Part shown: positions 11,301 through 39,800 of the stretch, one piece after another
How the letters are laid out: each line of letters begins with the position of its first letter
How positions within the stretch are numbered: position 1 is the first letter of the stretch
NCBI GenBank assembly: GCA_036172245.1
Contig: JAYWIR010000014.1
Coordinates: 2,728,001 to 2,792,000 of the forward strand
Direction: 5' to 3'
DNA from: Raillietiella orientalis
Taxonomy: Eukaryota
Length of the DNA: 64,000 bases
Translations under genes and position numbers: made by a program
Notes under the pieces: model-generated
The model's input: only the letters and a program-made list of their open reading frames with translations
The model's database searches: none
What the model was told of the DNA's origin: nothing

Positions 11301-12121
11301 GATAAGAGACCGGGTGTTATTCCCTGTTTTACTTGCTTCCTTTTCACAGGAACGGGAATTAATGACTTAAAACAGTAAGAGGAAGCATGGACATTTGAAT
11401 GCGTGAAAAGTCATCGATCATGAATTCTGTACGCGTGGATCATGGCGAAGCGCTCATCTTACCGAAATGTGAGAAAGAAATTGATTCCCGGATGAATGAA
11501 TTATTGGAAGAAAAAAAAAAAGCCACTCTCTTATTACCTCAATTTGCACAGGAATTACTCTGACTGTATCTGTATTTCGTGCCATGCATCACACCGTGCT
11601 AAACAAAACTACGTATAATAGCATGGTCACAGATTCCTGAAATACTGCACAAAAAAAAAAATATAAATATAAATATATAATGCTGAAATCCTCTTAATAT
11701 AAATCCTGAACCATATTGTCCTATCCCCGAGGATCTCAAAAGCAAAACAAAACACAATTAAAATCAGCCAATGTAGAAACACCCGGGAATAATGTGTTTA
11801 ACTTGCTTTAGTGCGTTCGCAATTAACATTATGAAAACTCAAAGTTGGCTTGAAGTTGGCTGCACTCATTCCAATAAATGGCAAAGAAAATGAGAATGGC
11901 TGCAATGATCCTGAAAACTGAGAACCAACCTAATTTATGTAAGATACCAATACGGATGGAAGTCGTTCGAGTTCCTTTTTTTTCATTGAAACGAAAACGA
12001 AGTTTGACGTCACTTGCGCAATAACAACGCGCGTCACGTATTCCAGAATAAAACAGGATTGCCATATCAGGATCAAAATCCTGATAATCATAATGAGTTT
12101 CCATTCCAGGTTTCGGAATCA

Positions 12122-12710
12122 TGAGAATCATTTTAACTCCTGCTTTTTCTTGAAGTTGTCTTATCATTTCGCCACCTTTTCCGATGACAAGACCAACTTT
12201 TGGTCCTGGGATCATCATTTCAATTGTTGTGAACCCGCCAACAGCACCTAAGGAACTATTTGACGGTATATGATCATTAGGTCCTCTCTGTTGAACAATT
12301 TGCATGATCATTTCCTTTGCACGATTTATTGCTTCACGACTTCCTTGGAGGGTACAATTTCTTTCTGGAAGACCATTGGAATCAGGTGCCATCTGAATTT
12401 TTGCACTAGATTCTGCTTGGAGTCTTGAAATTTGTTCTCCTCCTCTACCAATAATTAATCCAACCATTTTGTCTGGTACTTTCACTTCTTCGGTTATGAT
12501 TCCTCCCATTCCTGGATGTGGACCATTAGGAGGAAGATGTGAACTATTATTAGTAGTTGGGCCTCTCATAGCAGCTAGCTGAGCACCAAAAGGATCACTC
12601 ATTGATGCCATTTTTTTGGACTCTGGCTCTGAATTATCTTCCAATGGTCGCTTTGTTCCAACTCCTTCTCCAGAACCTGCCCCTCCACCTGGATTTATTT
12701 TGGCAGCAAT
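12122..12710 (-). pseudogene. FUBP1: Truncated far-upstream-element-binding protein (FUBP/KSRP/PSI family) fragment: N-terminal IAAKI/KRPLED segment, KH1 and the first half of KH2
   Basis: After an AG at 12711-12712 the frame reads IAAKINPGGGAGSGEGVGTKRPLEDNSEPESKK...ITEEVKVPDKMVGLIIGRGGEQISRLQAESSAKIQMAPD...IEMMIPGPKVGLVIGKGGEMIRQLQEKAGVKMIL, with GxxG KH loops typical of FUBP/PSI. Homology stops mid-KH2 at ~12122 with no GT donor, and the ORF runs on through unrelated sequence to a stop at 11829. No first exon (ALQRARQ) or KH3/KH4 is visible in the window. Confidence 0.75.
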
Positions 12711-20147: not shown

Positions 20148-22035
20148 TTTGCTCGTATTCGCCGGAGCTCTCGATTCATTGTAAAAGATGAATATTTGGA
20201 ATAAGCAGTCACCATTACTGTTTCTCGGTAGCTGGGTTCAGATTCCGCTATGTCGATGGAAGCCTGGGAAGCATTTCCGTTTGCAAGCACCTTGCCGGAA
20301 AAGGTTCCCATTTAAGAATTGGGGAGCAGGGGTAAACGGAGCACACACACAAAAGGATCAATTGAACAAAGGAAAAAGTATATAAAAATTTGGAATAAAA
20401 ATGGGGGGTGAGCCATCGGTTTCGCCCTGTCGTCTTATCCTCCTTTCCAGGATGTCGGCAACTTCCTTTTTTAATTGTTGGATCCCTTTTTTTCCTTCTT
20501 AGTGTAATCCTGATGAAGATCACAATCGGCAAAGCATCTCTGGATTGTTCGTTTCTTTCGCTCTGGTTTCTTGCTGCTAGGGTTCCACAGAAGCAGCACA
20601 AAGCTGCCTCAGTCGCCTTGTGCTGCTTCTGTGTAGGATTTTCACCCGGGTGAGCCGGGGCTTTTATTATTAAATGTTTTACAAAGAAAAAATTCTATAA
20701 TAAAGTCTTTTTTCTTGTCACTCTAATTTTATTTTTTTTTTCAGTCGGAGCACACGTTCCAACTGTCTTGGGGCACTTGTCCTTACCGACCCGCTGGCCG
20801 GTAGGGTCCTCTTCACTGGCGCGGGGGTGGGAAAAACAGAAAAAAAACACAAAAAAGAAAAACGCCTGGGGGAAAGTGTTTTGGGAGGGGAGGGAAGGGC
20901 AGGGATCACGGTACGCCGTGAGGAGGCCTCTGCATCCGGGTTTGGATGCGAACAAGTGCCGGCAAATGTTCGTTAAGTCGGCGCCAACGGGAAGCCTTCT
21001 GCAAAGAGATGGTTGCCCAGTGGATGACATTCCGACTTCTTTGTCCTCTCCTGGTTGCGGTCCACTTGTCCAAAATTCCGCGTATGCAACAGAGCACTGC
21101 TACACACGTGGGAGCTGGCATGGTGTCCCGCAACAGGAGGCGTCTAAAAATGTCTTTTGGGTCGCCAACCGGAATGTTCAGGATCGACGAGAGTCGATCC
21201 CACATCTGGAGGAGGGCAACACACTCGATGATTAAGTGGGGGAGGTCTCCCTTTCCCCGCACTCGTGCAACTGGCATCCATTCTCCCTGAGGTCCAGTGA
21301 GAAAGGTGTGCTCTGCTTAAAAGTCCCCAATGGAGCAGAAGCAACGCCGTCTCCTGCCAATCCAAAGGGAGGGTGCCACTGTCCCAAGACGCCGGGGGCC
21401 ACTTCACCTCCTCCGGAGGCATACCGAGCAGCTCGCCCCAGCGCACAATTCTATTTTGCGGGACACTCGGGGTTGTAGCGCCCGCTAGTTCCCGGGACGT
21501 CCCCGCCTTCATCAGTTTTTTCCTGCCTCCGATGAGGCTGTGTAGGAACGTCGCCTCAGGCGACATTTTACCACGCGTAAAGAGGTGTCCGAGCACGCGC
21601 TTCACGTAGTCCTTGAAAGTTGGAGAGCCTCTGCAAAACATCCCCATACACTCCGCACTCGAATACCAGGTGTGGAAAGGTTTCCCGTTCGCCGCACCTG
21701 GCACGATCCGGAGCCACCCTTCCTCTGCTCCAGTAGTGGCGATGTGCGTTCCATGGGACAGCCCAATGCAACAGTTGCAAGCCGAGTCTTGCCACTTCAG
21801 GGAAAGCACGGAGCTCTTCATGAATACTGCTGAGATCGCCACTACGCCCATAGGGATTTCTTCCCAGTGAAGAAGACCTTTGATATGAACTGAGGAGGTG
21901 GATTCGTCAGCTGGTTGACGAGCCGTCCAACATCCCAACAGTTTTTTCTTTGCGATTTCTCAGATCACCTCCTAGCTTGCCGATTGGCCACTGGTCACGT
22001 GCGCCTGCTTCAGTGTAACCTGCTCATTATTACAA
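20148..22035 (-). mobile_element. Older L1/Tx1-like non-LTR copy 'A2' (3' part of ORF2 and 3' UTR), interrupted by copy A
   Basis: Minus-strand LQLLHWAVPWNAHRHYWSRG...RCGERETFPHLVFEC (CCHC zf-RVT-like) at 21620-21800. It continues across insert A into LCCFCGTLAA...KEVADILERR at 20440-20610, then a T-rich UTR and a degenerate terminal hairpin near 20150-20170. Confidence 0.7.
20639..21537 (-). mobile_element. 5'-truncated L1/Tx1-like retrotransposon copy 'A' with 10-bp TSD
   Basis: LPLDWQETALLLLHWGL...CGERETSPHLIIEC C-terminal zinc-finger region. The 3' end is AATAAAAGCCCCGGCTCACCCGGGTGAAAA. Perfect TSD CTGTGTAGGA at 20629-20638 and 21538-21547. Confidence 0.85.
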
Positions 22036-23701
22036 AATTTGCAATAAGCATTTATGTGATTAAGATTTCTGGAGTTAGTTTCTCTGGAATTTCTACTTGT
22101 TTGTATGATCACCAACGTCCTTTGTGCAAGTCTAGTTTATGTTTCGTTTCCTTGCATTATCTTCGTTTCGTGACGGATAGTGCTGAATTGAGTGTTGCCA
22201 AGATATATTATCGCTAGTACTCTTTGAATTCTACACAATTTTGCTTACGGCACCGTGTTCTGTGTACTATATTCTTCCTTTTTCTCTCTTCCAAATTAAT
22301 AATTGTGAGATCTTTTTTTCATTTTGCAATTTCCTATGCTCCATGATACAATGGTTATATTATGGAATTTGAAAGAAAAAAAAAAAATCCCAAACTCTAG
22401 CGGCTTGCTATCGTTTGAAATGTTTTATGAGTATGTTTTTCAGTAGGAGATGATGGGTACCGAAACTGAATCTTCTCTTTAGAAATCTTGGTAAATCTTG
22501 GAAACACATCTTTGTTTTATTTCTATATAGAGCTTAATTTCTTGGAAATTTGACAAAACATCAGCTTTTTTAAAATGTAAGTACTTGACACAAAAAATGA
22601 AAAAAAAAATGGAAATTAAGGGCTTTTCTAATGTGGAAAAAGGAGCATTTAAAAATTCCCATTAGAGTTTTCAGGAGATTACTTAAGTTTACTAAATTCA
22701 GAATGTCATCACTCAATTAATTTTTTTTTTCTTAAAGATATGTGTACGTTTATTAATTTTAGCGCACAAAACTTTTAGAGTACTAGCTCCAAGTCAATTT
22801 CTAGGGAAAGAATGGATTGTAATGGACTCAAAGCTTCTAATCAATTTTTTATTGCTGTTCTCCTCTATTTGTGCTTCTTTTGCATTCATGGTTGATTTGG
22901 TAATCTGACATCCTGTAAATAACATTTTTAATCCTTGGCATCGTTTTTGTGAATCACCATATCTTTGACATTGCAGATCCCGTCCCTGGATGTCATCATT
23001 TATTCAGCATAAACTTGGATTTCCTCTAGAATATCAATTATGACCGCATTATGATTTGGGGTAAGGAGCTTTGCGTGTAGTTCTGTTGGTCAGTTAGTCT
23101 ACATGTTTCTCCTGTTTTTAGTAGAATATTAATCATTTTCAAAATACCGATATTCCTGTTTTATTTTCAAAGTCGAGACCTACAATTGTACAGATAAAAG
23201 GGGGGACTCTTCCTCATCTTCCACTCTTCCTTCCACTTCGTTGAAGTTGTGTCACAAGATATTGGGCTACAATAGGGAAATCCTGTAGGCTGTCTCTCGG
23301 CGACGTCTTTTTCTCCGTCTAAGAGCTGCTCTTCTTCATGGGGATGCCGCAGGTTTTGGGGCATCATCCGGTAATCGTGTCCGGTGAATCTCTCATGCAG
23401 AGAATGCATGAAGCAACCATTGGCTGCCCTCAAGCATTCGCGACACTCGCTGTCGTACAGGTCGGCCTTTCCCGAACTTTTCCTGTGGCGGAACACTTGC
23501 ACAGATCCTGAAATCTTAACGGAATACCTTGGTTATTTGACAGGGTAGGCAGGTATTAATAACAAATAAATCAAGCAAGCAAACAGAAGAGTTATGAAAA
23601 CAAAACGAACATTTATTCTCAAATTTTAATTATGTAAAACAAAGCACATGAAAATAGTAAAGAAAACTGAATAGCGTTTAAAGTATATTACTTTTCGTAA
23701 T

Positions 23702-23753: not shown

Positions 23754-24520
23754 ATATCAGTCATAGGTTAAAAAAAAAAAAATTATGAAATATCTGATCG
23801 CTCACGATGCACTATCGTGCTCTTCCTTCCTCCCCCCTCTCTCCCACCGAAAATTAACTTGCCGAAAATTTCATGATTTCATTCAGCCTTTATGCCCACA
23901 ATATTCTAAACATAATTTGTAATTGAATCTCCACAGAGTTATGTTTCACACAAGTTTAGAAACCCATCAAATGAATTTTCGGTATAGACGCGTTTCCAAA
24001 GTTCCAATTTAGCTACTCTAATTGAGTTCCTAGTAGAAAGATTTCTCTTTCGGTTGGAAAACCAATATGAGGAGAAAGCGCCCGCGTGAGACGAGCGAAG
24101 TAGAAACAGTCATTGACGTGGTCGAACGATTGGAGATTACTGTGGACGAGTTGGATGAAGTCCAGAATCCAACCCGGTCAGGGTAAGCTCTTCAGAAAGT
24201 GGTCAAGGTCCACCCAAGTCTCACTCAAAACATCATTGATGATCAGGAGAGGAAGGAGGTGGAGGGCTATCATTACAAAAGACTTGCTTCTGTCCCCGAG
24301 AAGGAAAGGAGAGATCATTGTTCCAAGAGACTTGATGCCAAGCGTACGTAGGGCCGCAAGGGAGGAGCCCAGCTCACGGAGGGGCCTTCCGTGTCACCAC
24401 AGCATGGATCAGGGTCGAGAACAGTATGTTAACGGATGAAACCGTATGTTAACGGAGGCATCAAACAACAGGGGTGACTGTCATCAACTTTTCACTGTCC
24501 AGAATACTCTCAGGGGATGG

Positions 24521-24959
24521 TTTTTCACCCGGTATCGCCGGAGCATGTATTATCGAAGTAATAAGCGTTCATTTTTTGTGACGGAACACATGGCCCCACC
24601 ACGTCCTAAAGGAAAGGGAGGGGGACACTTTCCGAACTCTCCAATTTTCCGGTACGCAGACCGGGGAGGTCCGTTTTGGCAGCAAAGGGGGAGGACCGAA
24701 AACAAAAATAAACAAACACAAAAAAAGGACGGGAAAGTTTCCTTCGGAGGGGGAGGAAGGTTGAGGAAGAGATCTTGGACAAACATCCTCTGCATCCTGA
24801 CCAGGATGCTGGCAAGTTCGTTCCTGATGTTGCCTAGGTGGGGCCATCTCGAGGAGCTCCTCAAAAAGATTCTAGACCAGCGGACTGCGTCCCTGCCATT
24901 CTGGCCCCTTCTTGCGGCGTTCCAGGCTGCCATGATCCCGCGAAGGCAGCAGAGGAATG
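24521..24959 (-). mobile_element. 5'-truncated L1/Tx1-like copy 'E'
   Basis: LCCLRGIMAAWNAARRGQNGRDAVRWSRIFLRSSSRWPHLG (ORF2 C-terminus), T-rich UTR, and 3' end AATACATGCTCCGGCGATACCGGGTGAAAAA. Flanked by imperfect target repeats CTCAGGGGATGG (24509-24520) and CTCAAAAGGATGG (24960-24972). Confidence 0.8.
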
Positions 24960-24972
24960 CTCAAAAGGATGG

Positions 24973-25609
24973 TTTATCACCCGGATTTGCCGAGATATTT
25001 ATTATAAAATTATAATACAAGTCGAGATTTTTTACAATAATGTGGCAGAACACTTGGTTCTACCAGGGGCGAAAAACTCGTCGCAACCGGTACACAGACC
25101 TCTGAGGTCCGCTGCCGCGGCGAAGGGGGAAAAGAAACCAAAAACAAACAAACACAAAACAAAAAAGGGAGGAGAAGATGTTGGAGAAAGGAGGGTGGAC
25201 AAGGGATCGTAATACGCCGGGTGACGTCCTTTTCATCCTGTCCAGAATGCCGACAAGTTCTGTAGATCTATTTCCCAGGAGGGGCCATCTGAAGGAAGTC
25301 TTCAAAAAGATCCGCACCCAGTAAATGACGTCCCTGATGTTCTGGCCTCTTCTCTCCGCATTCCAGGCTGCCACGATTCCGCGGATGCAGCAGAGAACTG
25401 CTAAGGACGCGGCTGGCGGCAGAGCGGCATGCATGAAGAGCCGCCGAAACAAGTCCCTTCGATCGCCTCCCGGAGTTACTAGGACCGTCAAGAAACGATC
25501 CCAAAGGAGTCAGAGGGTGGCACAGTCCAACAGAAGGTGCGAAAATGCCTAGTTTTCTCCGCACCTTCCACAACGGGCAACCACACTCCCCCGTGTCCAG
25601 TGATGATAA
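24973..25609 (-). mobile_element. 5'-truncated L1/Tx1-like copy 'F', tandem with E
   Basis: HHWTRG...CGREN..HLLLDC...AVLCCIRGIVAAWNAERRGQNIRDVIYWVRIFLKTSFRWP, with 3' end AATAAATATCTCGGCAAATCCGGGTGATAAA. Flanked by TCAAAAGGATGG (24961-24972) and TCAAAGGATGG (25610-25620). Confidence 0.8.
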
Positions 25610-26964
25610 TCAAAGGATGGTAAGGTCGCATTACCTGTTTGAAGATGCATTCTTCGGACGCACGGAACGTTCATCTGCTGCTGATAAACGCAGGCTGTCT
25701 CCACTGGAGCAAGGAAAGTAGCAAGGAATCTCTGAGGGCTCTTCCGAAAAGGAGAAGTGCGTCAAAAGACGCCCTAGTCGTCGGGGAGGAACTGCACATT
25801 CCTTACCGAGGCAACAAAAGACGCTGCGAAGTACAAGGAGCAACAGCATCGGCGAATGGTGGAAAGTCAGGTCCCAGGTGGCTGGGCTCCTGCGAAACGC
25901 ATAAGAACTGCATCCTCCACACTCAGCAAGCAGAAGATGTTTCAGAGATGTTCCGGATCTTCCCTTGAACCACTTCCGCTCCGCTTCAGGATAAAGGCGG
26001 AAAACCCCAGGAGATAGCAGAAGAGGTGGGCAGAGCTTACCTTCATATCTGAGTGGTAGGGCAGTCCGAGTACTCAAGGGTCCTGGAGCTATCCTTGCGA
26101 CTACTGCCAGACGCTGCCAGGGTTGAAAGCCGAGACACCCTAAAACATGCCATTCGCTGTCCCCGAGCATGCAGTAGGGCAGCGGCAGGATTCTATGGCA
26201 AGAGGGTGTAGGGAAGAGGACGTCCAGGATCTCATCCTGCACTCTGGAACCAGCGCCCTAGGAGGTCCCCTCAACAGACTGTAAAAGGCCCGGTTTCGCG
26301 GGAAAAAAGATCCGGATCCCCAGATAATCTCGACACGTGTGAAAACCGACGCAGAAGCTGTTGAGACTCGGAACGCTCAGTTTCCACCGCAACACGGCTG
26401 CTCCGATCTATCCTATGGAAGCAGGTGGAAACGGCCGCATTTCTGGACCGCGTCAGCACATCGGAAAAAGACTGGACGCACAGGAGAAAATGCGGCTAAG
26501 AGATGGGGGCTCACGGGCGAGGAAGCGAATACAGTCCTCCGGGGACGGCACGTAGACGTGGCAACGGGTCTGCGTCCTCATCGCGCAAGGTCAGCACCAT
26601 CAGCTGACCTGAATTCAACTACTCCGACAGCTACTGATCCGAGTCATTAAGCAATGGGTCCTTCCACCAAAGCAGGAAGACGTTTCTCCCTAAGAAAGAT
26701 GATGATCCGCTGGAACTTAGCCGGTGAAGGCCAATGGCAGTCCCGAACGCGGACGCCCGGTGGTCTGTACGTGTGTCAGAAACGCAGATGATACAAATGC
26801 GGAGTGGATTCAGATACTGATGACCCCGACGCTCAGGTCGGCAGCATTCGAAGGATAAAGAGGGAACAGTAAGGTAAAGATGAGGATCTAAAAGGATGAA
26901 TAGACAGAAATGAATCAGTGAATCGATTATGGAAAATTCACTGGATGGTGTCGCGCAGCTCAAA

Positions 26965-27457
26965 CAAGGGAAAGAGATTTCCAGGAGTTCAATGGGGATC
27001 TCCTTGCAGTGGAGAAGACCTTTGAGTTGGACTGAGAGGATTCGTCAGCTGGTTGACGAGCCGTCCAACATCCCAAGTTTTTTCTTCTCTGCGATTTCTC
27101 AGATCACCTCCTAGAACGGTTCCGGTTGAACACTGGTCACTTCCTCCCGATTCAGCGTGACCTGCTCATTATTACATAATTGTTCGTCCACGGCCGTCCC
27201 AGTGATGCTCCCGCTGGGACGGCCGTGGACTTCTGCCTGCTTGCACACGCGTCCACTCCCCCGCGGATCAGCTCGAAGCGGTCCCTTGAGTGGCTGTCTC
27301 CTCGTAGGATCCCCGCCACTCAGGGGGTGCTGCACGGTTAGTGGCCGCTGGAGCAAACGTGGAGAGAGTATCTAGCCACGCGGAACTCAGGAAGGCAAGC
27401 AGAGTAGCCGGGAAGCCAGAGACGGGCCAGGAACTCCTGGATGATGCAGTCGAAAGC
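26965..27457 (-). mobile_element. Downstream half of interrupted RT host 'G', plus an A2-like ORF2 segment
   Basis: Minus strand from 27457 reads AFDCIIQEFLARL/GFPATLLAFLSSAWLD...GILRGDSHS...FELI, collinear with B's AFD.VD...GFPALLVAYLSSSWRD...GIRQGDSLS...FELV. 26990-27180 is homologous to 21850-22035. Confidence 0.75.
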
Positions 27458-30400
27458 CCGCCTCGTTTCGCTCGGCAAAAGTGTGGTTCCTCCCTAAGGG
27501 AGGAGATCTGAGGAGCATGAGCAACTGGATCTCATCACAATAGTGAATGCGGACTCCAAGTTGCTGGCTAAGTTGTGGGCAGAGCGACTGGGACGGGTTG
27601 CTAACGCCTTCATCAGCCCGTCACAGACGTATGCTGTTCCCGGGTGAGGCATGGAGGCTAACCTGTTCCACTCTTCCACCTCGCTGGAGCTCCAACATGA
27701 AAGGGGCTTGGTGCGCAACCGGAATTCCGGCGCGTCCGTCGGCAACGGGTTGGATGGTCGGGTGGTGGAGGGAGCCCTTGCGGTCGCAGTCGACTTGCAA
27801 AAAGCATTCGATTTTCACCCGGATTTGGCCGGGGCGTTTATTTAAAAATAAACTTTTACAAAGACGTACAGTACACGCACGAAGGAACACAGAGCCTGCC
27901 GGGTCACCGGTTCGCAGACCGGTACGGTCCACCACGGCAGCAGGGGGGAAGGGGGAAAAACAAAAAACTAAACAAAAAGAAAAGAAAAGGTGGGAGGGTA
28001 CGGGAAGGGATCACTGAAGCTGGTGGGGCCGTTGCATCCTTCGCAGGATGCCGGCAAGCTCTTTCTTCATTCCTGGATCCAGGTGGGGCCATCGCGACGC
28101 CCTCCGCAAAAATTCGGCGGCATGCTGGATGGCACCCTTATCGTGGGGTCCTCCCGTAGCTTTACTCCAAGCGGCGAAGATCCCGCGTAGGCAGCACAGC
28201 GCTGCTAACGAGGACGCAGGCCGAAGAGCGTCGGCAACGAAGAGGGCTTTCAATGCGTCCCTGGGGTTGCCGCAGGGGATACCCATGGCCGCGGCAAAGC
28301 GGAACCAAAGGGGCCGAAGGCAAACACAATCCACAAGGAAGTGGGGGAGGGACTCCCGTTCCCCACACCTAACACAATTGGGGTCGACCGCTCCCCAGGT
28401 CCAGTGGTGTCGGCGGGCATTGCAGGGTAGTCCCCAATGCTGCAACAGTAGAGCCGACTCCTGCCATTCTAAGGGGAGGGTGGAAGTGTTCATGAGCACC
28501 GGGTGCCGCTTCAGATGTTCAATGGGAACATCGAGCAGCGCGCCCCAGCTCAGAAGTCCATTGGGAGGCGTACTCGGGGTCGCAGAGTCTGTTAACTGGC
28601 CCGTCAAAAAGCATTCCTCTGCGTCGACCAGAGACTCCTGCTGGAGCTTCTGGAACGCTTGGGCTTCCCGGCCTTATTAGTGGCCTATCTGAGCTCCAGC
28701 TGGCGCGACGCTCTCATCAACGTTTCTTTCAGCGGGCAGATCGTGCACGACATGCCGGTGCGGCGTGGGATACGGCAGGGAGACAGCCTGAGCCCCTTGC
28801 TCTTCAGTACCTACTTCGAGTTGGTACTGAGGGCGTACAGGGAAACTCTGGCGCACCGCACGCACGATTGTGCCGGTACGTCTACGGTGTCAGCATACGC
28901 AGACGACCTTCTGCTGCTGCTCCCCATGTCCACCTCAGCTTCAGCGGCCGTCGGGGATTTCTTCGATCTGCTTAGTCGCGGGACCGGACTGCAGGTCAAC
29001 AGGGCGAAGTCGTTGGTGGTGCCAGTTGGTGCGACGTAGGCAGGACGGCCTGACCAGATCCGTTTCGGGATTCCTACGGTCAGGTACCTGAAGTACCTGA
29101 GTGTTCCGTTGGGAGACTTCTGCCCAACAGAAGCCTGGTCAGGTCGTCTCCAGAAAGTGGAGTTGGCAATCGGCCCGTTCCTGGAAGGCAAGTTTCACTT
29201 GCCTGAGCGGGCCGCGGTTTGGAACGCCTTCGCGGTCCCCATCCTCCGCCCCCTACTTTTTGCCTGCCCCATCCCCGTGGAAATTAAGAAGAGGACCAAG
29301 GACCTCCTCCGCATCGCCCTCTGGGGTAAGGGGAGGCCTCGAGCCCCTTTGAAGGATTTGTGCGCTCCGCGTCGGGACGGCAGTCTTAGCCTCTCGACGC
29401 TGGAGCGCATCGAAATTCAGCTGCGATGGCGCACCATGGCCATCGCAGCGAAGCTGTAGAGCACCCCTTGGTGCATTTCGGCCCGCCTCCTCGCTAGCCG
29501 TGTGTCTCGGTGCGATGGACTCGCGTCTTTTCTTCTGTGCCGCGGTCGGAAGATCCGAAGATGCGGCCTACTGCTCGGGCGCATGGCAACCCTGGCGAAG
29601 GAGAACAGCTGGATGGTTTGCTGCCCCGCCAACTCCTCCGCCTGGTTGGAGGAGACTGCTGGCACCTGGACAGAGCTGAACCGGAGGAGTTACGAAATGT
29701 TGAACTGTCTGCGTACTGGCATATACTCCCGCCGCACTCTGCGGGAAATACTGCAACCCCCCCGGAGTTGCAGCTGGGCGGAGACGACTCCTCTTGCCAT
29801 GGCGATGCCCTTCCTGAGGAGGGCGCTTCACGGCGGCCGGACGCCGAGGTAGCAAGTCTCTTGCCGGATCGCAGGCAGGGAGAAGATGATCAACAGCTGG
29901 ACCATGGGAGAACTGGCGGGCACCACGACCGCGACCGTCCAGCCGAGAGGACTTCTGAGATGGGGCGAGCTGCTCGCCATCCCGATAGATGAGCTGAAGT
30001 GGCCCCCAGTAATGAAGGAATCCAGGATCCTGCCCCTTAAGTGGCAAGAGTCGGCGTTGCTACTGTTGCACTGGGGTTTACCCTGCAACGCACGGCGCTT
30101 CCACTGGACAAGGGGAGCTGTGGATCCTGAGTGTCCCAGGTGTGGGGAGCAGGAATCGCCCCCCCACCTCATCGTTGATTGTGCTGCCCTCCGACCCCTT
30201 TGGGAACGGTTGGGGACGACCCTCGGGCTCCCTATGGGCAGCGCGCGCAGAGACGTTTTCCGGTTCCTCTTCGTGCGGGACGCCTTGCAGCCAGTCCTCG
30301 CAGTACTATGCTGCGTTCGAGGCATCGTGGCGGTCTGGAGCGATGCCAACAACGAAGATCGAGACTCGAACGAGAGGGATGCCATCCAGCCTGCAGTATG

Positions 30401-30714
30401 CTTCATGAAGAGAGCTGCTGGATGGCCCCAACTGGGACCAATGCAGATGGACCTCGAGGGCTTCCTTCGACGGATGGGCCCTCCTCCCAGTGAACTGTGA
30501 TCCCTTCCTTGCCCTCCAAACTCTTTTTATTTCTTTATTTTTTTATTTTTTTTTTTGTTTTTTCCCCTTCATCTTTCACTGCCTAGGGGAGCCACGCCGG
30601 ACTGCGTCCCGGCGTCCCTGCAGGTCCGGTGTTGTGTGACCGTTAGTGGGGCCTCGCACCACGTAATCTGTTGACAAGAAGGAGTTTTAATAAACGTCCC
30701 GGCGTATCCGGGTG
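27458..30714 (+). mobile_element. L1/Tx1-like retrotransposon copy 'B': 5'-truncated ORF2 with RT and C-terminal CCHC, interrupted by D
   Basis: WFLPKGGD..NW..ITIVNADSKLLAK, SPSQTYAVPG, AVDLQKAFD, RRGIRQGDSLSPLLF, SAYADDL, TGLQVNRAKS, LKYL(S)V, HWGLPCNARRFHWTRGAVDPECPRCGEQESPPHLIVDC. A few stops and frameshifts. T-rich UTR and 3' end AATAAACGTCCCGGCGTATCCGGGTG. Confidence 0.92.
27812..28604 (-). mobile_element. 5'-truncated L1/Tx1-like copy 'D' inserted antisense into the DLQKAFD motif of B
   Basis: Open 198-aa C-terminal ORF2 (28011-28607) with CVRCGERESLPHFLVDC and 3' end AATAAACGCCCCGGCCAAATCCGGGTGAAAA. TSD CAAAAAGCATTC at 27798-27809 and 28605-28616. Confidence 0.92.
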
Positions 30715-31869
30715 GCATCGCCGCCGCATCAACCGATGCGGACTCCAGCTACGGAGGGTGGCTGCACTGATACGGAAAAACCAAGGATTGATCACCTGTC
30801 ACCCCTCGAACGGTCCTCGTGACTGGCTGCAGGAAACCGTTCGCACGTGGGCACAGAGCAGCATACAACGCGCCGAACAGGAACGACGGTTTCTGTTCGG
30901 GCGCTACAGAAGTTGCACACTCCGAGAGATCCTGGAGGATCCAATGAAGAGAGCGTGGTCAGGAAGAACCCCCCTCGCTGCTGCGCTGCCTTCCCTGAGG
31001 GAAGATCTGGACAGCGATGTTGCGGCGAAGTGGAAGGTTGACATAAAAATCTCCGAAAGGGAGAAGAAAATAGGAGACTGAAAGACGGGTCAGCTAACTG
31101 ACACTGCGACCCCGAGTACACCTTCCCATGGACTTCTGCGCTGGAGTGTGCTGCTCGATTCTCCGGATGAACATCTGAAGTGGCTTCACCGCCACCTTCC
31201 CCTTAAAATGGCAGGAGTTACTGTTGCTACACTGGGGACTCCCATGCAATTCCCGCCGGCACCATTGGACCTGGAGAACGGTGAACCCTAACTGTGTTAG
31301 GTGTGGGGAACGGGAGTTCTTTCCCCACCACCGTGTGGATTGTGTTACCCTCGGTCCTTTTGGCTACGCTTTGCCGCGGCCATCGGAATCCCCTGCGGCA
31401 ACCCTAGACCGCACTGGAAGTCCTCTTCGTGTCCGACGCCTTTCGGCCTGCGGCCTCGTTAGTAGCCCTGTGCTGCCTTCGTGAGATCGTCGCCTCTTGA
31501 AGCAAGGCAACGGAAGGACCTCGCGATAAGGGTGCCATCCAGCGCGGTGCCGAATTTTTGGAGAGGGAGTCGCGATGGCTCCACCTGGATCCAGGAATGC
31601 AGAGAGCTTGCCGGCATCCTGCGAAGGATGCAACGGCTCCAGCAGCAACAGTGATCCCTTCTTGCACCCTACCACGTTTTCTTTTCTTTTTGTTTAGTTT
31701 TTTGTTTATCCCCTCTTCCCCCTGCTGCCATGCTGGACCGTACCGGTCTGCGAACCGGTGACCCGGCAGGCTCTGTGTTTCTTTGTGCGTGGCTGGAGCG
31801 CTGGTCCAGCCACAGCGCGTGTTAAAGTTTGTTTTTTATGATAAAGCCCCGGCGAAAACCGGGTGAAAA
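30715..31869 (+). mobile_element. 5'-truncated L1/Tx1-like copy 'C' (same subfamily as D), head-to-tail after B, with its 3' end at the DLANAFD motif of G
   Basis: LLHWGLPCNSRRHHWTWRTVNPNCVRCGERE; 3' UTR nearly collinear with D; 3' end GATAAAGCCCCGGCGAAAACCGGGTGAAAA. The B+C block is flanked by TSD TCGAAAGC (27450-27457 and 31870-31877). Confidence 0.9.
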
Positions 31870-32105
31870 TCGAAAGCGTTTGCAAGGTCGACCACCGCCG
31901 TCAACGACATGCCTTTCTGGGCGATGCCTCCCTTGCTCGCACCAGACCGGTAGTTAAAAGTCCTTCGGCTGTCGGGCGCAACCCTCTTCTGCAGCAGAAT
32001 CCAGGAAGAGCAGGTCGTTCTCCGTGTTCCTCCCAAGGACAGTGCACGACTGATCTGGAGTGACCACCGAGTTTGTTACTCGCTCCAGACGCGCAGTCTT
32101 CCGAG
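31870..32105 (-). mobile_element. Upstream half of interrupted RT host 'G'
   Basis: Minus strand ARLERVTNSVVTPDQSCTVLGRNTENDLLFL...AVVDLANAFD, homologous to but clearly divergent from B's AERLGRVANAFISPSQTYAVPG.GMEANLF...AVDLQKAFD. Confidence 0.8.
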
Positions 32106-32109
32106 AAGT

Positions 32110-33480
32110 CTGGCGTCCGAATTCACGACCGCGCTCGGAAGCCAGCTATCGGGCTGAGCAGGCTGACGAACGGCCCTTGCCGATCGGAGCAAGGGGTCAC
32201 GTCGCCCATCCCCTGATCAACTTTGTAGTCTGTAGCACCAGGAAGAGCTCAGTTCGTCCGAGAAATCGGAATGCAGCTCCACAGGCAGGGTGCTGTCTTT
32301 CCTTTGAGATTTGCGATGACATCCAGGATTTCTGCCATCATTGAGGGACCATGGAGTTTTGCGCGCGGCGGGAGCGTTTTCCGGCTGCAACTGCTGTGCG
32401 GAGTCTCTCTCTTCATACACGGAAGAGGGGGGCGACCTAACACAGATGCGGCGCATGTCGGCCGGAGCTCATGACCTTGCTTGTCCAGCAGGCACTACTT
32501 GGGTGTGCCTCTTTATGGGAATCTGGAAGCATCGTTTTCCTTTCACTGGGGGCAGATTTTGCTACTGTCCACTCTTTTTCTTTTCCTCCCCCACCATTCC
32601 TGCACCCTCATCTCTTCTTTCTCCCCTACCTGCTCCCAAGGGGATTTCCGTATTGCCGGTTGGCAGTACTTGAGAATGCACCTTGGCCTGTTATTCCAAT
32701 CTCGTTTGCCTCTCCTTTTCATTTCGGTTCCTGTTTTCCCATTCATTCTCTTTCGGGTGTTTTGCTTGCGGGTAGTCACGGTGAGGTTGCACCCAGGCAT
32801 ACAGCGCGCATTTGATGGAGAAAATTGGTGCTTTCTCCCGGCTCTCCTTTTCCCATCACTTTCGCGCTCACCGCCAGGAGACGGAGGCACCTCATCCCTG
32901 CAGCATGCAGGGAAGTGGACTGCAGCCCCGAACTGTGGCGCGCATTGATACGCAAAGTCCTCGGCGCAGCTTTCACTCCTCATCGCGGGGTTCAGGTTCT
33001 CCTCCGAATGGCACTCGTTGTCACGTGGTCTTCCAGGACCGTCGCGATTCACATGCCCATCACCTTCAGCAGGACACTCTTGAGATGAACGCACTAATGA
33101 GAGTGATTCACCTCCGAGGAAAGACTCTTTCTCTTCCCCGTTACTAGTGGCGGACGCTGCCCAAGCAGCGAATCCTTTCAGGATAGATCCCGGAACTTCT
33201 CTGTCCCAGAGGCGTAAGGAAGACGAGATCTTTGACTTCTGTACTCCTTTGTGGCATGTTTCGCACCTACTCTCCCTACCTTGTTAAGGGGGATACTTCT
33301 GCAGCTGCTCTCTACCTGTACCTGCAGCTCCCATCAGAAGGATGCGCTGCTTGTGAGGCTGCGGCAGAAGCCTTACAAGGAGGATCGCTGTGTTTGGGGG
33401 ACTCATGGATTGCTGGGTGCCCTTCCGTTTCTCTTCCCAGAGGTGGCCTCTAGTTGACTTGGACGTGTTTCTTTCCTTGT
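32110..33480 (+). mobile_element. Decayed RT C-terminal half and zinc finger 'J', probably the continuation of host K
   Basis: EQGVTSP (~32180), PLRF(A)DDI with a 1-nt deletion (~32300-32325), RHYLGVPL (~32490), WRTLPKQR...LCPRG..EDE (~33145-33230). Frameshifted throughout. Confidence 0.55.
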
Positions 33481-33756
33481 GGCTTTCTTGATACTTTGGG
33501 CACCCTTAGGGAAGCCACATCGAACAAGGACGACCAAAGAGTAGAAAACAACACTCCCGCAGACGAAAAGGTTCCTTCTTACTAGGTGAGATCAAAGACC
33601 CTGAAGAGGATTATCTACTAATTCTTCAAGATAGGGAGTGCTTCAGGGGGGGAACACCATATGAATCCAGTAAGTGCTCCGCGGAGAAGGGACGTCCGTT
33701 CCTTTCACGCCTAAGAGGGATCTCCGAAGGGAACCCTCCGCCCTAGTTGTCTTCGA

Positions 33757-34820
33757 TTTCCACCTGGACACCCCGGGGCATCTCTTACAATGTAAAGGAA
33801 ACTAGCAGATTGTAACGGGACGCGCTTGGTGACCCTGCCATGCTCCGTCTGTCCGTGGACCGGCCGGGTCGCCGATGCGCGGACTGGAGGGGGGAACTCC
33901 CCTCGGCAGCGAAGAGAGAGGGAAGAAAACAAAAAATTAAAATAAAAAAAAGACAGTAAATAAAAATAAATAAAAATCTTTGGGAGGGTCGGGAAGGGAT
34001 CAACGTCCACTGGAGGGAGTCTGTATCCTTTTAATCTTGGATGCCGGCTAGGTCCGTCCGAATAGGTCCCAGATGGGGCCACCTGGCCGCCATCCGCAGA
34101 AAGTAAACTGTGAGCTGGAGGCGTCCCTCCCGTTTCTTCCTCTGTCGGCTTCGCTCCGAGCCACCGCTGCAATCCCGCGGATGCAGTAAGGCGCTGCTGG
34201 GGCTGCGTCTGGCCTCAGGGTGTCCCACACGAAGAGGAACCGTGAAACGTCTCTGGGGAAGGTGCCATCCCGGATCCGGAGGATCATCCCGAAACGTTGC
34301 TATGGAGGTCGGAGGGCAACACGGTCCACGAGCAGGTGCAAGAGTGATTCCCGTTCCGCCCCGCACCTGCGAAACAGCAGTGTCGGAGAATACGATTATC
34401 AGTTCTGTGAAGAGCACCATTTTGCCTTCAGGGCAAACAATGGCAGCAGCTGGCCGGTGTTTGGCTGCGACAGTCCGGGGTCTCCCTCCCCAGCGTCCAG
34501 CGGTGTCGGCGTGCGTTGCAAGGAAGACCCTGGTGCAATAGCAGCAGAAGTGCCTGGTAAGCATTCAATTCAGCCATGGCTGTCGCTGATGGTGCTGCAG
34601 CCACAGCACTCCATTTTCTCTCTCCCGGAATCATCTTCCGTGGGAACGGACGTCCCCACCTCCATTGCTTCGGGAGAGGAATTGGCCTGATCTCCCCCAA
34701 CATCCATTCCTCAAACATTGCTGCCATGTGGACACCGTCGATGCACCATTAAGAAAATACCAAGGGAAATCCCCAACTTCAGGTTAGACGGAGCACTGGG
34801 AAAAACGTCCGCGCCGTATG
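33757..34820 (-). mobile_element. 5'-truncated L1/Tx1-like copy 'H'
   Basis: YQALLLLLHQGLPCNARRHRWTLG, RCGAERESLLHLL, CCIRGIAAV-like, RWPHLG; T-rich UTR; degenerate 3' end GCCCCGGGGTGTCCAGGTGGAAA. Imperfect TSD GTTGTCTTCGA (33746-33756) / GTTGTCCCCGA (34821-34831). Confidence 0.8.
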
Positions 34821-34839
34821 GTTGTCCCCGAACCCCTTC

Positions 34840-36800
34840 CGCGCTCTCTCTGGAGGGACCCCTGGAAGGGACCGCTCCTTTGTTTCTTCTTCGAAGGGAA
34901 CCCGGAAAGGATCCGCTCCTTGAATTGCTTCTTCGGAGAGAACCCACAACCTCTCCTTCTTCCCTCCTCTGAAAAAAAACCTGAAGGGACGCTTCCGAAT
35001 TTTTTCTGGAGGCGCTCCCCGAAGGGAACAGCGCCTTTCCTGAGACTATGGAGAAGTATCGATCCACCAGCTCCATGGCACGAGGCGGGGGGTCCATTCA
35101 CGAAGGAGGGACGACTCCGTCCTCACAACCAGAGGGGCACCCAGAAAGGAACAGGCCCCCTGGATTCAGCTTCCTGGAAGGACCCCGGAGGATCGACTCC
35201 CAATCCCGACCACTCATCAGGGGCTTCTGGTTTTTGCCAGCTCCTACCAGCGCCTCACCCGATTATGGGCCAACCAGCGTCATCTTGGGGGAGAACGCGA
35301 ACCTGCGATGCACCCATTTCTCTCGTGTCCGTTCTTTGCGCGTATTCGAACTCGTGACGTCTGGAGCCACTCACGGGGAGACTGCAACCACACGGCCTCC
35401 GACGCGGACATACCTCTGAGTCTGCTCACAGAAGGGCTTATCCCTTGGAAACAAAGCTTGATATTGATCCAGGAAGATACGTACGATGTCTGCGCGTCAA
35501 ATATGGGAAATATCAGTTGAGCCTGATTCCTACTTCAACAGAATCATAAAAAACGACCTGACACTGAATCTCTCAGATATGCAGAACGCACTCGAACTGC
35601 TAGACGCTCGTGCAAGTCCTGGGAAAATAATACTTGCCAAGGAAATTCTGCAATGCGTGGAACCCCTTTTTCAGGAAGCCAACTGTCGAATCGGATGGAG
35701 AAGAAACATCTAAGATTCACACAGGACGATACGTCTTCAAAGCGATCTTATGCACATCATAACTGTCTCTGTATAGAGGTGGTGAAAAGTCACCAGAGGC
35801 AGCACGCTCAACGGCATTCAGGTTGGAGACATTCCTGACTTCGCCGACTATCTCCTCTTTCTGGTTTTCTTTGTTTTGGTCCGCTAAGTGCTCCTCAAGA
35901 GCCTGTCGCCTGCCTCGCGGCTCACGTGGCCCTTTTAAACACTGTTTTGTTTCCACGCCTCTCCGCCTGCGGCAAGGGGGCATAATTCTTCAGGATAGGG
36001 GGCACCCCGGGATGGGGTCCGCCCTATGACTCCAGGAAGGGCTCGGAGTCCGTTCCTCTCACGCTTGGGAAGGGATACCCCCCCGGATCGCACCTCCCAC
36101 CCTGGTTGTCTCCGAAGGAGAACCCCGAAGGGAATCTCCTTCCTCATTCTCTCCGGAGGGACACCTCCCCCCAATGGGGAGGGGCTGTCCTCTCCATTTC
36201 AACTTCTCCGAAGGGAATCCGGAAAGGATCCGCTAGTAGGAATTTCTTCTCCGGAGGGAACCCGCAAGGGAACCGCTCCTGTTCACTCCTCTGAAGAGAA
36301 CCCCGAAGAGACACTTCCGAAAGGGGCGCTGCAGCTTTCCGCAGGGGAATCTCTCTCTCTTGCTTCCTTGCACTCTCGAAGAGGCGACGACTCGGAGGGT
36401 AACCCCCGCTGATGGGGTCCGCTCCATCGAACAACTGGGAGAGGTGCCCGTGAGGTCTCCTGCTCCCTGTTGAAACCGGAAAGGTACCCTCACTGAGGGG
36501 GTCCGCTCTCCGTTGTACGACCGGAGGGGGAACTCCCCACTCCTTGGATTTCTGGAAGAACCCGAAGGTGAACTCCCATTGTTCCGGCCTTCATTAGGGG
36601 CCTGCGGCTTTATCCACCGCCGGTGCCACGCCCTAATGTCTCGGCCAACCGGCGCCATGGCAGGAGAAACTCGGAACCCAACGACGCAGTGGCTTCAGTT
36701 TCTGCCAGAGTATTCGATCCCAAGACGCATGGTGCCACACGCGGAAGCCTTAACCACAAGGCCTCGGACGCGGGTTTTCCTTTCTGTGTGGCAGGTGATG
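34840..36800 (+). repeat. Two diverged copies (~34840-35420 and ~36050-36800) of a probable retroelement 5'/ORF1 region containing degenerate ~40-bp tandem repeats
   Basis: Recurrent unit CTYCGAAGGGAACCCGGAAAGGATCCGCTCCT at 34850-35040 and 36105-36330 (also 33715-33740). Downstream segments 35340-35410 and 36705-36775 align (GTATTCGA...AACCACANGGCCTCNGACGCGG). ORF1 identity is inference. Confidence 0.55.
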
Positions 36801-39800
36801 AAGATCAAGAGACACATTTTTATTCATCGTCGAACTGATGGACTCGGAACTAAGACTTGTGATCAATCCGAGGTGCAAGATGCTAACCGTGAGAATCCCG
36901 GACTTTACTAACTTCATCTCCAGGGGATTCCAGATAGCATGATATCCGAAATTGGATGTTTACATTGGTTCACATTGCCTTATGAGCAAAGGTACAACAG
37001 TAAGACACTATCGATACCCTTAAAAGCGAGACAACGAAGTACACATGGTCATACCTCAGCTTGGAAGCAATGGAACCGAGTCTTATCATCCAATTTTCTT
37101 TTTGGAACAGCCTACTCCACTCCATGTCTGAGACGATGGTCGATTGAGCCAACGTGCAGAGAACATTAAAAATGCTGAGAGCAGGGAACTTTCATGTGGA
37201 ACAAAAATTCCTGTGCCGCGTACGATCGGTAGGTAGCACTGGGATGAGATATCAGGCATTCCATCAAACACAAGGACTTATGTCTACTAATCAAGCCTAT
37301 CAACCTGGGGGATGAGTAACCATGCGTGTTCCGCATAGCACTTTCCAAGTTTACCAACGGGATCGATGGCTTCACTACTGCTTTCAGCTGTAGAAAGGAT
37401 CATCGGAATAGAGTAGACCCAAGTTAGATGAGAAAGCAACTCAACAATGATGTAAAACCGAAGGTGATCCAGAAGATCAGGGAAATCTGAGAAAAGGAGC
37501 TCGTTCTTGTGAGACATTGGTTCATCCTTATCTCATAAGCAACATAAAAACAGCTACAAAGATCGACTGTGGCCATAGAAGACTGCGAGGAGTTCTCGCT
37601 GAGCAGCAATGTCTGATAACCGTGCCTGTTCGCCCACAAGATCTAGATTCAAAGCTGGACGACTCAGTCCTAAATATGACATTGTAGAGCTTACAATGAG
37701 TAGAGGTCATTTTCCGGAGTCTCGAAATCATACCCAACAACCTACAGGAGCGAGGAAAGCACTGAACCAGAGACCATGTGTGGGATGCTGGTCCCCAGAT
37801 ATCGGCGAGTGGATTCTCCGGAGTCTCCCTCTAGAGATCCGTCTGCCACCAGAAGATGAGGACGCCGTTCCATCACGGAGGAACTTTGAATGGCAGTAGG
37901 ATCCAGCATTGGGCAGGCGATCCAGCTCAGAGTATTACCCAGTTCTTCATGTGTAGAATCTACAGACACATAGTGGAGAATATCCTAAATGTACCTCAAA
38001 AGAGTACTAATTCCTTCCCAGAACTCAACATAGTGCACAAGTAAATGCCGTACTACGTGGAGAGCTAAACTACGCCGTTAGTGTTGATATTCTCTCGGCG
38101 CTCGTGTTGTAAAATTTGGTTGCAAAAGTTTCTTTGGTTGATAAAATGAACTGACCCACTGCTCGTCGGATTGGAGAAAGTCCCATTAATATGCTGATAA
38201 AATTTAATTGGCCTCTCAAAGGATTCTTACTTTCAAAAATATGTGAATTTAGAAAGCAAGCGAATCAATATGTAATTTGTTGAGAATTTTTTATTTTAGC
38301 GCCATTCGAAATCAATTTTTTTGAAAATGGCGTGAAAATTGAAACTCACTATTGAAACTCATTACTCACACACTCACTACTCAAACAATCTGATGGGTAG
38401 ATCATTTTTATATTTGTAGGTTCATTTATATGTTTCTTTTTTTTTTTTTAAAAAAAAAGCTTTTTCTAGGCATGAAATTGTTTCTTCCAAGAATGAACAA
38501 AAAACTGACTACTTAGATTGTTTTCAGTCATTTTTCCACGTTCTTATTCCATTCCCTTGAATGTTTAAGACTGCTGTGAACATTTAACTTGTTAATTTTG
38601 AATTCACTCGTCAGTCTGTTTGAAGAGCTTGGGCACCGTGAATCTCGTCAGACTAGGCTTTGTGTACACGGTAAGAAAAACAAGTGTTATGTTGTCAATT
38701 TCACAGATTTCCGGGTTTTCTGAATTATGAGCCAAAGCACCAGCATAGCGAATACCATTTTTGTACGTTCAAGGGCAGCATGAATTCTTACATAGAAGCA
38801 CATGCATGTATGTGCATGTGTGCTTATATGTATATGTGTGTTCATGTAGGTACGTTTTGCATGAGACATCACCCTGTGTACCAGGAATCTTGTTTTCGAT
38901 CCGTTTCTGCAAGTTCATGATCAGATTTTATGCTTTTATCTGAAAGCTACACAAACCTGCTAGGATGTTTGGAAGTCTTTCAATACATAAGCAAATCGAA
39001 GAATGCAAAAGGTTTGAATTTGAGTGCCAGCTAATGTGCATCTGATAGTTATGGAAAGAATTTTTATTATTAAATGGTGTTTTCTTTATAATTAATCTGC
39101 AGTATTCTATTTGCCATTATAAGTTTCACTTTATGATGTATTATTATTTTTCTTTATTGTTCTGAGGTTGATTGCCTACATTGTGTGAGGAATATAAAAG
39201 ATGAGAGTTTCAATAAAAGATTCTTTGTTTCCGGTGATCGAAATGAAAAATGCACCAAATTCTTGCTATTCGTGAAAAAGTAAAGCAAATCTTGTATTCT
39301 AAAGAATTGTGTGTACCTCGGAGCAGAAGAAAGGAAGTAGGTTAGGATACATATTTGATACTACTAGGTCGAGGGTTTTCATTGTCATAAGTGCATAACA
39401 GAACTCAGGGGAAAGATCACACTAGACATTTATTGTTATTAATCATTGAGACAGTCCGTGGAAATGTAGAAAACTGGCAATTTCTGTTCTTAAGATGGGT
39501 TCATTATTGGTTTAGGCATGGGTATCTTAATATGCAGTTGTTTGGTTGACTCATTTAATTCATTTGTATTTAATGAAGATGAGTTCCATAACTTTTGCCT
39601 GCTACTTTCATGAGCTCAATCTTTCATTTTTGCACTGGTTTGGAATTTTCATTCAGCATTTTAGCATCCTACAGGATCACCAGCCCAAAACATTAATAAT
39701 TGCTATATTAGTGATTGAGTTCATACAAATAATAACTGTTGATACAGTCTTTATCAGGTGTTTTGCTGAAATACCTACCACTGTTCCTTAAGACAATACT

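Follow-up and report, generated by a model that had tools for sequence, protein, structure and literature searches.

In Trypanosoma brucei, ingi and RIME repeatedly interrupt the RHS (retrotransposon hot spot) genes at one relative position, the target being a host gene family. In the available parts of the literature on site-specific long interspersed nuclear elements (LINEs), transposons are listed among the targets, and the Tx1 and R1 clades are described as target-specific groups of the apurinic/apyrimidinic endonuclease (APE) type (PMC4640811). Tx1 itself targets the piggyBac element Tx1D, Tx1-Mar targets Mariner-N4_AMi and Tx1-9_AMi a Harbinger element; Tx1-8_Crp and Tx1-4_AMi target long terminal repeat (LTR) retrotransposons, Keno targets U2 genes, and Kibi and Koshi target microsatellites. 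The preferences of crocodilian Tx1 families comprise a Mariner, Harbinger elements, LTR retrotransposons and microsatellites. Insertion of the Tx1 type is often opposite to the direction of the target, and SINEU-3 tandems that sandwich the target-site duplication represent a pattern of Tx1-mobilised elements (PMC4494074). Furthermore, Zepp LINEs form nested GC-rich clusters through insertion that targets existing copies (PMC8226300, PMC3446292). Herein, a LINE cluster is described in a 64,000-nucleotide stretch of the Raillietiella orientalis genome (contig JAYWIR010000014.1, positions 2,728,001 to 2,792,000, forward strand). This whole stretch is hereafter called the window, and all coordinates refer to it. 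Within the cluster, two copies of one LINE subfamily, C and D, were found to be inserted antisense at the same nucleotide of reverse transcriptase (RT) motif A in two divergent LINE hosts, G and B.

Architecture and independence of the nested insertions

The nest consists of an outer host, G, interrupted by a block of two joined copies, B and C, of which B is in turn interrupted by D. Its parts are as follows.

31870..32438, minus strand: host G, 5' part, from an old and degenerate LINE RT, with motif A (GTCGACCTTGCAAACGCTTTCGA, 31892-31870) at its end
27180..27457, minus strand: host G, 3' part, resuming (D)CIIQEFLARLWLPGY...GILRGDSHSRDRFEL and including the left duplication copy TCGAAAGC at 27450-27457
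31870..31877, plus strand: right copy of the 8-bp duplication TCGAAAGC, flanking the B+C block and identical to 27450-27457
27458..27811, plus strand: B, part 1, both host and insert, a 5'-truncated LINE with RT from ...ASFRSAKVWFLPKGGDLRSMSNW to AVAVDLQKAF+GA, carrying frameshifts and a stop
28605..30715, plus strand: B, part 2, with the remainder of the RT, a C-terminal CX2CX7HX4C domain, the 3' untranslated region (UTR) and a final tail, ...CCGGGTGG; 28605-28616 is the right-hand copy of the D duplication
27812..28604, minus strand: insert D, a C/D-subfamily copy of 793 bp, truncated at its 5' end and lying antisense in B
30716..31869, plus strand: insert C, a C/D-subfamily copy of 1154 bp, truncated at its 5' end, lying antisense in G and head-to-tail with B, with no duplication between them

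Both nested splits proposed in a first-pass annotation of this DNA, that of G by the B+C block (27458-31869) and that of B by D, were recovered, and the junctions and duplications can be read directly from the sequence. In both cases, as had also been proposed, the insert is antisense to its host and its tail lies against the GA of the last Asp codon. Insert C ends in ...GCCCCGGCGAAAACCGGGTGAAAA, with its last base at 31869, and is followed by TCGAAAGCGTTTGCAAGGTCGAC at 31870-31892. This flank, composed of TCGAAAGC GTTTGCAAGGTCGAC, is the reverse complement of GTC GAC CTT GCA AAC GCT TTC GA, and its minus-strand translation yields V-D-L-A-N-A-F and two bases of the Asp codon. The second copy of the 8-bp TCGAAAGC, at 27450-27457, abuts the 5' end of B (27458). 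Past this left duplication, the minus strand of host G reads C TGC ATC ATC, giving the joined translation ...TAVVDLANAFD/CIIQEFLARLW... (the slash marks the junction). The tail of D, on the minus strand from 27812, abuts the ...GTC GAC TTG CAA AAA GCA TTC GA of B, which ends at 27811, and the target-site duplication CAAAAAGCATTC is found at 27798-27809 and 28605-28616. The tails of C and D both end in ...CCGGGTGAAAA, and each abuts TCGAA, which corresponds to the A-F-D codons of RT motif A read in antisense.

The earlier description of both host frames as resuming in AF(D)C(I/V) holds for G (AFD/CII) but fails for B, which after the right-hand repeat reads CTC TGC GTC (AF-L-CV) and not GAC TGC GTC. 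The closest database protein to B is P0002, a 619-residue RT fragment from a metagenome that is 71% identical to the B RT (Pfam RVT_1, E 4.7e-24), and P0013 is a protein of 132 residues that is 70% identical to P0002. Both proteins, about 70% identical to the B RT, carry AFDCVD and read AVDLRKAFDCVDQ; the site in B before insertion was therefore probably ...GCATTCGA^CTGCGTC. Judging from these relatives, the D duplication probably measured 14 nt originally, and at its last two positions, beside the first-nick joint, the copies no longer agree (GA vs CT).

The assignment of the host fragments was supported by tblastn. Residues 29-234 of P0002 matched the 5' part of G at 32438-31869 (27% identity, E 2.3e-4), and the B RT matched its 3' part at 27417-27310 (E 0.002). 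In part 1 of B, residues 113-136 and 139-234 of P0002 were matched at 71% and 58% identity, respectively, and in part 2 residues 216-615 were matched at 60%. Insert D retains an intact 220-residue C-terminal open reading frame (ORF; reading frame 28011-28673), with its terminal hairpin and tail at 27812-27836. The terminal hairpin and tail of C lie at 31846-31869, and this hairpin is present in the minimum-energy fold.

At the junction of B and C (30715/30716), no duplication lies between the two copies and the tail of B carries no A run. Template switching is established for LINE reverse transcriptases. Because B and C share one duplication, have nothing between them and lack an A run at the tail of B, the arrangement fits a single event, in which the enzyme would have switched templates, leaving a C RNA at its 5' end and continuing on a B RNA from its 3' end. 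Such a template switch is the most likely origin of the joined block; re-insertion accompanied by a small deletion is a possible alternative.

The interrupted frames of both hosts run into the antisense tail of the insert (27812-27840 and 31840-31869), and both would be read through into a common peptide, ...AFD-FHP(D/V)(L/F)AGA(F/L)(I/S)-stop. No protein among 174 relatives stops in the 25 residues that follow motif A, and neither AFDFH nor FDFHP, the peptides of this read-through, occurs in any of them. In addition, 27186-27230 holds an inverted repeat with perfect 17-nt arms, GTCCACGGCCGTCCCAG / CTGGGACGGCCGTGGAC, separated by an 11-nt loop; it lies in G just before the start of another family member, K.

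The first-pass annotation had regarded the two insertions as independent events, and the comparison of hosts with inserts bears this out. Upstream of the motif, B and G reached a local alignment score of 22, against 18.8 +/- 2.2 for shuffled sequences. Downstream of it they scored 51, with about two-thirds identity over about 150 nt, as is seen for distant RT homologues. Inserts C and D, compared over the same length, scored 390, and blastn aligned them at 80.9% identity over 836 columns, the 23-nt flank included. The two duplications differ (8 vs 12-14 nt), as do the 5' truncation points (1154 vs 793 bp), and about 60 residues present in B between NYR/NWR and motif A are missing from G. As the inserts align strongly and the hosts, upstream of the motif, show no similarity that nucleotide alignment can detect, it is confirmed that one subfamily inserted twice and independently, each time antisense, at an identical base of RT motif A in divergent hosts. 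It is very improbable that C-in-G and D-in-B descend from a single event, in the form of an ancestral nest that duplication or gene conversion would later have multiplied. Such a history would account for the equal orientation and junction base of the two nests and for a 23-nt flank about as similar as the inserts themselves; it is contradicted by the host scores, and the differing duplications, truncations and residue content speak against it as well. The region is dense in repeats, which might invite mis-joining in a collapsed cluster of transposable elements (TEs). An assembly artefact of this kind is equally hard to credit, as chimeric joins would not give matching duplications at the junctions and host frames that resume across the inserts. 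The 23-nt flank was also considered as a possible 3' transduction; this was ruled out, as both hosts read the motif in frame on both sides, matching P0002.

The element family and its other copies

The family consists of non-LTR (LINE) retrotransposons, with an RT of LINE type, 5' truncation, no LTRs and variable duplications. The RT of B was recognised by Pfam RVT_1 (E 9.8e-13; 48.7 bits vs a cut-off of 29.6). A CX2CX7HX4C knuckle is visible in D (CVRCGERESLPHFLVDC) and in B (CPRCGEQESPPHLIVDC), and the corresponding matches to Pfam zf-RVT (E 0.0069 and 0.0025) both lie under the gathering score. Full-length relatives, only about 28-36% identical to P0002, carry Exo_endo_phos and RVT_1 in six of six cases and a zf-RVT match in five of six. 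A HMMER search of 1.84 billion representative proteins returned 328 at E <= 1e-30. Identity was 24-38% for the best 150 of these, P0002 and P0013 aside, and the names obtained among the relatives (turtle, Closterium and pseudoscorpion proteins) are uninformative. By its architecture, the family would belong to the L1/Tx1 group of LINEs, and an APE-type endonuclease is expected from its relatives. Two leads point to the Tx1 clade in particular, namely a protein-atlas cluster labelled 'Transposon TX1 uncharacterized 149 kDa protein' (score 0.88, rank 22) and a motif of the QTYAVPGR type, which we take to be Tx1-like.

Local tblastn with pieces of the window and database relatives revealed seven copies of the wider family (B, C, D, E1, X, Y and M) at five integration sites. 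All seven are 5'-truncated and lack LTRs, and the duplications at the five sites measure 8 to 14 nt. At three of the five sites the target is itself a family member (B for D, G for B+C, and K' for E1), a Zepp-like pattern of nested clusters made mostly of 3' ends through insertion into existing copies. The copies outside the nest are as follows.

20639..21537, minus strand: copy E1, whose tail ...CCCGGGTGAAAA abuts TCCTACACAG (20638-20629), with a second copy of TCCTACACAG at 21547-21538; E1 lies in family member K' in sense orientation
24507..25620, minus strand: tandem of X (25609-24973) and Y (24959-24521), head-to-tail
33757..34819, minus strand: copy M, from a related subfamily, whose tail CCAGGTGGAAA abuts TCGAAGACAACT (33756-33745); 5' duplication copy TCGGGGACAACC (34831-34820)

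The sequence CCATCCYYTGA(G) stands before, between and after X and Y (25620-25610, 24972-24960 and 24520-24507). As each of the two copies is flanked by the same 11-14 nt, repeated insertion at one site is indicated. The sequence hosting X and Y gave no Pfam match and has no other copy within the window. Site sharing within this window comprises C and D (2/2 at RT motif A) and X and Y (2/2 at one site, sandwiching the duplication), with M and E1 elsewhere.

The host of M is a dispersed or satellite-like repeat and not an RT, with a 41/42-bp tandem repeat nearby at 34852-34945. An empty paralogue of it is found in 35960-36340, where the site without M reads TCGGAGACAACC on the minus strand. The M-host repeat, at 33600-33756, 34820-35000 and 35960-36340, is rich in GGAACCC/TTCGRAG units. 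The 10-bp duplication of E1, TCCTACACAG (20629-20638), overlaps an arm of a 19-nt, 95% complementary inverted repeat in K' (20586-20633), which places the E1 insertion at the base of a hairpin. Over 195 aligned columns, K (26992-27180) and K' (21850-22038) share 81.5% identity, beginning at a common point (...GTAATAATGAGCAGG), which may mark the fixed 5' end of a short derivative and not a random truncation.

Over their last 440 nt, the copies share a common layout, consisting of a stop codon region, a T-rich stretch, a hairpin of the CCGGTCTGCGAACCGG type, AATAAA, CCCGG-N4-5-CCGGG, TG and 3-5 A. The tails are accordingly composed of a hairpin and 3-5 A and not of a long poly(A) stretch. Pairwise identity of the 3' ends was highest for C and D (84.4% over 424 columns), followed by X and Y (66.8%) and B and M (64.0%); other pairs reached 50-60%, M being 54-59% identical to C and D. 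The terminal hairpin was present in the minimum-energy fold of four of the seven 145-nt 3' ends, with z-scores of -3.2 to +0.4, and its stem is nearly invariant. In this alignment and folding, the sequence used for M ended 7 nt before the end of its tail.

The remainder of the window holds several unrelated features. A 293-residue open frame in AT-rich DNA at 11829-12710 (minus strand) encodes two KH_1 domains (E 2.2e-30) and represents an ordinary eukaryotic gene, or exon, for an RNA-binding protein. A GC-rich block at about 3100-8900 (up to 64% GC) contains long open frames on both strands with no similarity to the LINE family, and the eight frames tried gave no Pfam match. A 436-residue open frame in AT-rich DNA at 60169-61479 (minus strand) matched no Pfam family either. 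Pfam assigned no family to 14 further ORFs in and around the cluster, among them the hosts of X/Y and M and the GC-rich block near 3100-8900, and Rfam gave no match at gathering score in the window.

Target preference and competing explanations

A six-frame scan for D-x(2,3)-A-F-[DLEN] returned three matches in the 64 kb, corresponding to B, G and a spurious one in AT-rich DNA at 22552, and tblastn with P0002 and seven other relatives detected RT in the window only in B and G. Both RT motif A sites of the window are occupied by a C/D copy at the same base (2/2), and both C/D copies lie in motif A (2/2). Counted on both strands, the window has 146 TCGAA sites, or 1.1 per kb, and TCGAA was found after three of the seven tails (C, D and M; P ~5e-8 for random positions); the tail of B abuts C and not target DNA. 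A nick preference for ...TTCGA^ is well supported. Under uniform use of TCGAA, the probability that both C and D fall at the two motif A sites is 1.9e-4 for the whole window (146 sites), 1.7e-3 for its GC-rich parts (49 sites) and 5e-3 for 24000-37500 (28 sites). Among the relatives of P0002, AFDC is rare (3 of 148 occurrences of motif A, compared with 99 of 148 for AFDR). As both hosts read AFDC, G, though very degenerate, can be placed in one wider group with B, and the C/D subfamily may carry the AFDC motif itself.

Several searches for further events were carried out. The tail pattern matched at least 120 loci in metagenomes, and by eye, over 40 nt on each side, a LINE 3' UTR lay upstream in none of the 120 loci listed; the pattern is unspecific, and these 120 loci were taken as chance bacterial matches. 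In genome and viral collections, protein-guided scans returned no relative, and junction patterns gave one and four matches, all five of them unrelated. The C-terminal domain of D, compared with longer proteins, had no match among 1679 candidates, and residues 60-234 of P0002, compared with shorter proteins, gave two distant matches among 372 candidates.

The favoured explanation, to which a probability of about 0.5 is assigned, is that the C/D subfamily genuinely and heritably prefers the motif A site in kin LINEs, beyond the bare five-base nick site. The region would then be an old pile-up of 5'-truncated copies of one L1/Tx1-group LINE family, integrated through target-primed reverse transcription at selected sequences. 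The first nick would fall on the sense strand of the host RT after ...GCNTTCGA^C, inside the Asp codon of motif A (A-F-D), and the nicked 3' end would prime on the A-rich RNA end just past the terminal hairpin. A second nick 8-14 nt away would produce the duplication of 8-14 bp, with the new copy usually 5'-truncated, antisense and splitting the host RT. Motif A of kin LINEs would in this way serve as a multicopy safe harbour, the killing of the host copy being a by-product.

A shorter recognition sequence offers a different account of the same sites, and it is regarded as a genuine though doubtful possibility. About five bases (...TTCGA^) may simply be favoured, either by the endonuclease or by the RNA 3' end in priming. 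With motif A spelled GCN TTC GAC and insertions gathering in TE-dense DNA, the two motif A matches would represent a moderately improbable coincidence that involves no recognition of motif A itself. Several observations weigh in this direction and against a preference for the motif. One of the three tails joined to TCGAA, that of M, lies outside any RT, in a repeat where the site was ancestrally perhaps TCGGA, and the M target is unlike those of C and D beyond TCGRA; E1, X and Y sit at sites other than TCGAA. Given the hosts, the coincidence has a chance of about 1/14, with seven TCGAA/TTCGA sites in B and two in G. The events number two and were picked out post hoc among very many windows, and the likeness of the two target sites is confounded by the homology of the hosts. 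In addition, tblastn with eight relatives found no endonuclease fragment in the window, and the right copy of the D duplication is followed by CT where GA would be expected. The five-base account is itself opposed by the low probabilities under uniform use of TCGAA (1.9e-4 to 5e-3). Furthermore, M belongs to another subfamily (54-59% vs 84% identity for C and D) and says little about C/D, and the X/Y tandem that sandwiches its duplication, an arrangement also known from Tx1-mobilised elements (PMC4494074), makes the family look target-selective and supports recognition of long targets in it. Annealing between RNA and target has been proposed to steer integration of R1/R2-type elements, and a related scenario is conceivable here, although improbable. 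A master C/D copy residing in motif A would yield read-through transcripts whose 3' bases anneal to nicked motif A, the endonuclease alone being less specific. The C-D alignment does extend 23 nt past the tail, and co-transcription with the target can strengthen target-specific integration, according to the available part of one report (PMC4494074). These 23 nt are, however, the hosts' own, since the RT reading continues on both sides and the duplications lie inside them, and no transduced flank is visible.

Returning to a preference of the C/D subfamily for motif A, the chances that specificity covers the whole motif, beyond the five-base nick site, are about even. The first-pass annotation had proposed the RT motif as the target of a LINE that kills other LINEs. 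Of this proposal, the two C/D events at motif A stand, whereas recognition of the full motif competes with that of the short ...TTCGA^. The insertions do destroy the host RT, and an adaptive benefit from this destruction is conjectural. The broader notion is held tentatively, at somewhat less than even chances. It describes a LINE lineage that would home, invariably in antisense, to the DNA of its own kin that encodes RT motif A (…K-A-F-D-C…), and that would act as a self-limiting, 'hyperparasitic' LINE disabling competitors or relatives.

If this notion is correct, the most constrained codons of one transposon would be the safe harbour of another, and conserved coding motifs of other LINEs would constitute a new class of target for site-specific LINEs, one that could hardly be lost by mutation without inactivating the host element. 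Such targeting would further provide a natural case of interference between transposons, help to explain the build-up of GC-rich LINE nests, and make the endonuclease a candidate sequence-specific nicking module. If TTCGA alone is recognised, the cluster would be an ordinary graveyard of nested repeats left by a mildly selective LINE.

Comparison with known systems

No report of a LINE that targets RT motif A or the coding sequence of another LINE was found in the literature searched. The earlier suggestion that such a target is without precedent can be kept in this narrower form, since transposon targets are known for Tx1 (PMC4494074) and self-copies for Zepp (PMC8226300), as far as the available parts of these sources extend.

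Zepp and ZeppL, L1-clade elements of green algae, resemble the present cluster in forming GC-rich local pile-ups that consist mostly of 3' ends owing to 5' truncation. Zepp itself occurs as a single cluster on each chromosome, tied to centromeres, and the available parts of the Zepp reports name neither a nucleotide-level site nor an RT motif (PMC8226300, PMC3446292). LINEs of the R1/R2 type in ribosomal DNA share with the C/D subfamily the use of one fixed base in a conserved multicopy sequence, the inactivation of the target copy and the possibility that read-through RNA contributes to precise priming; R2 differs in its restriction-like endonuclease and in its target, a host gene and not a transposon. 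Zepp has a poly(A) tail.

The Tx1-clade LINEs provide a further set of parallels. They differ in that the RT motif A coding sequence is not among the targets named in the available text (PMC4494074), and in that dozens to hundreds of copies serve as evidence for them, compared with two events here. In common with the present family, they use transposons as multicopy targets, often insert antisense, form tandems that sandwich the duplication and show targets specific to individual subfamilies, and they have the APE-type architecture that the relatives of the present family lead one to expect for it as well.

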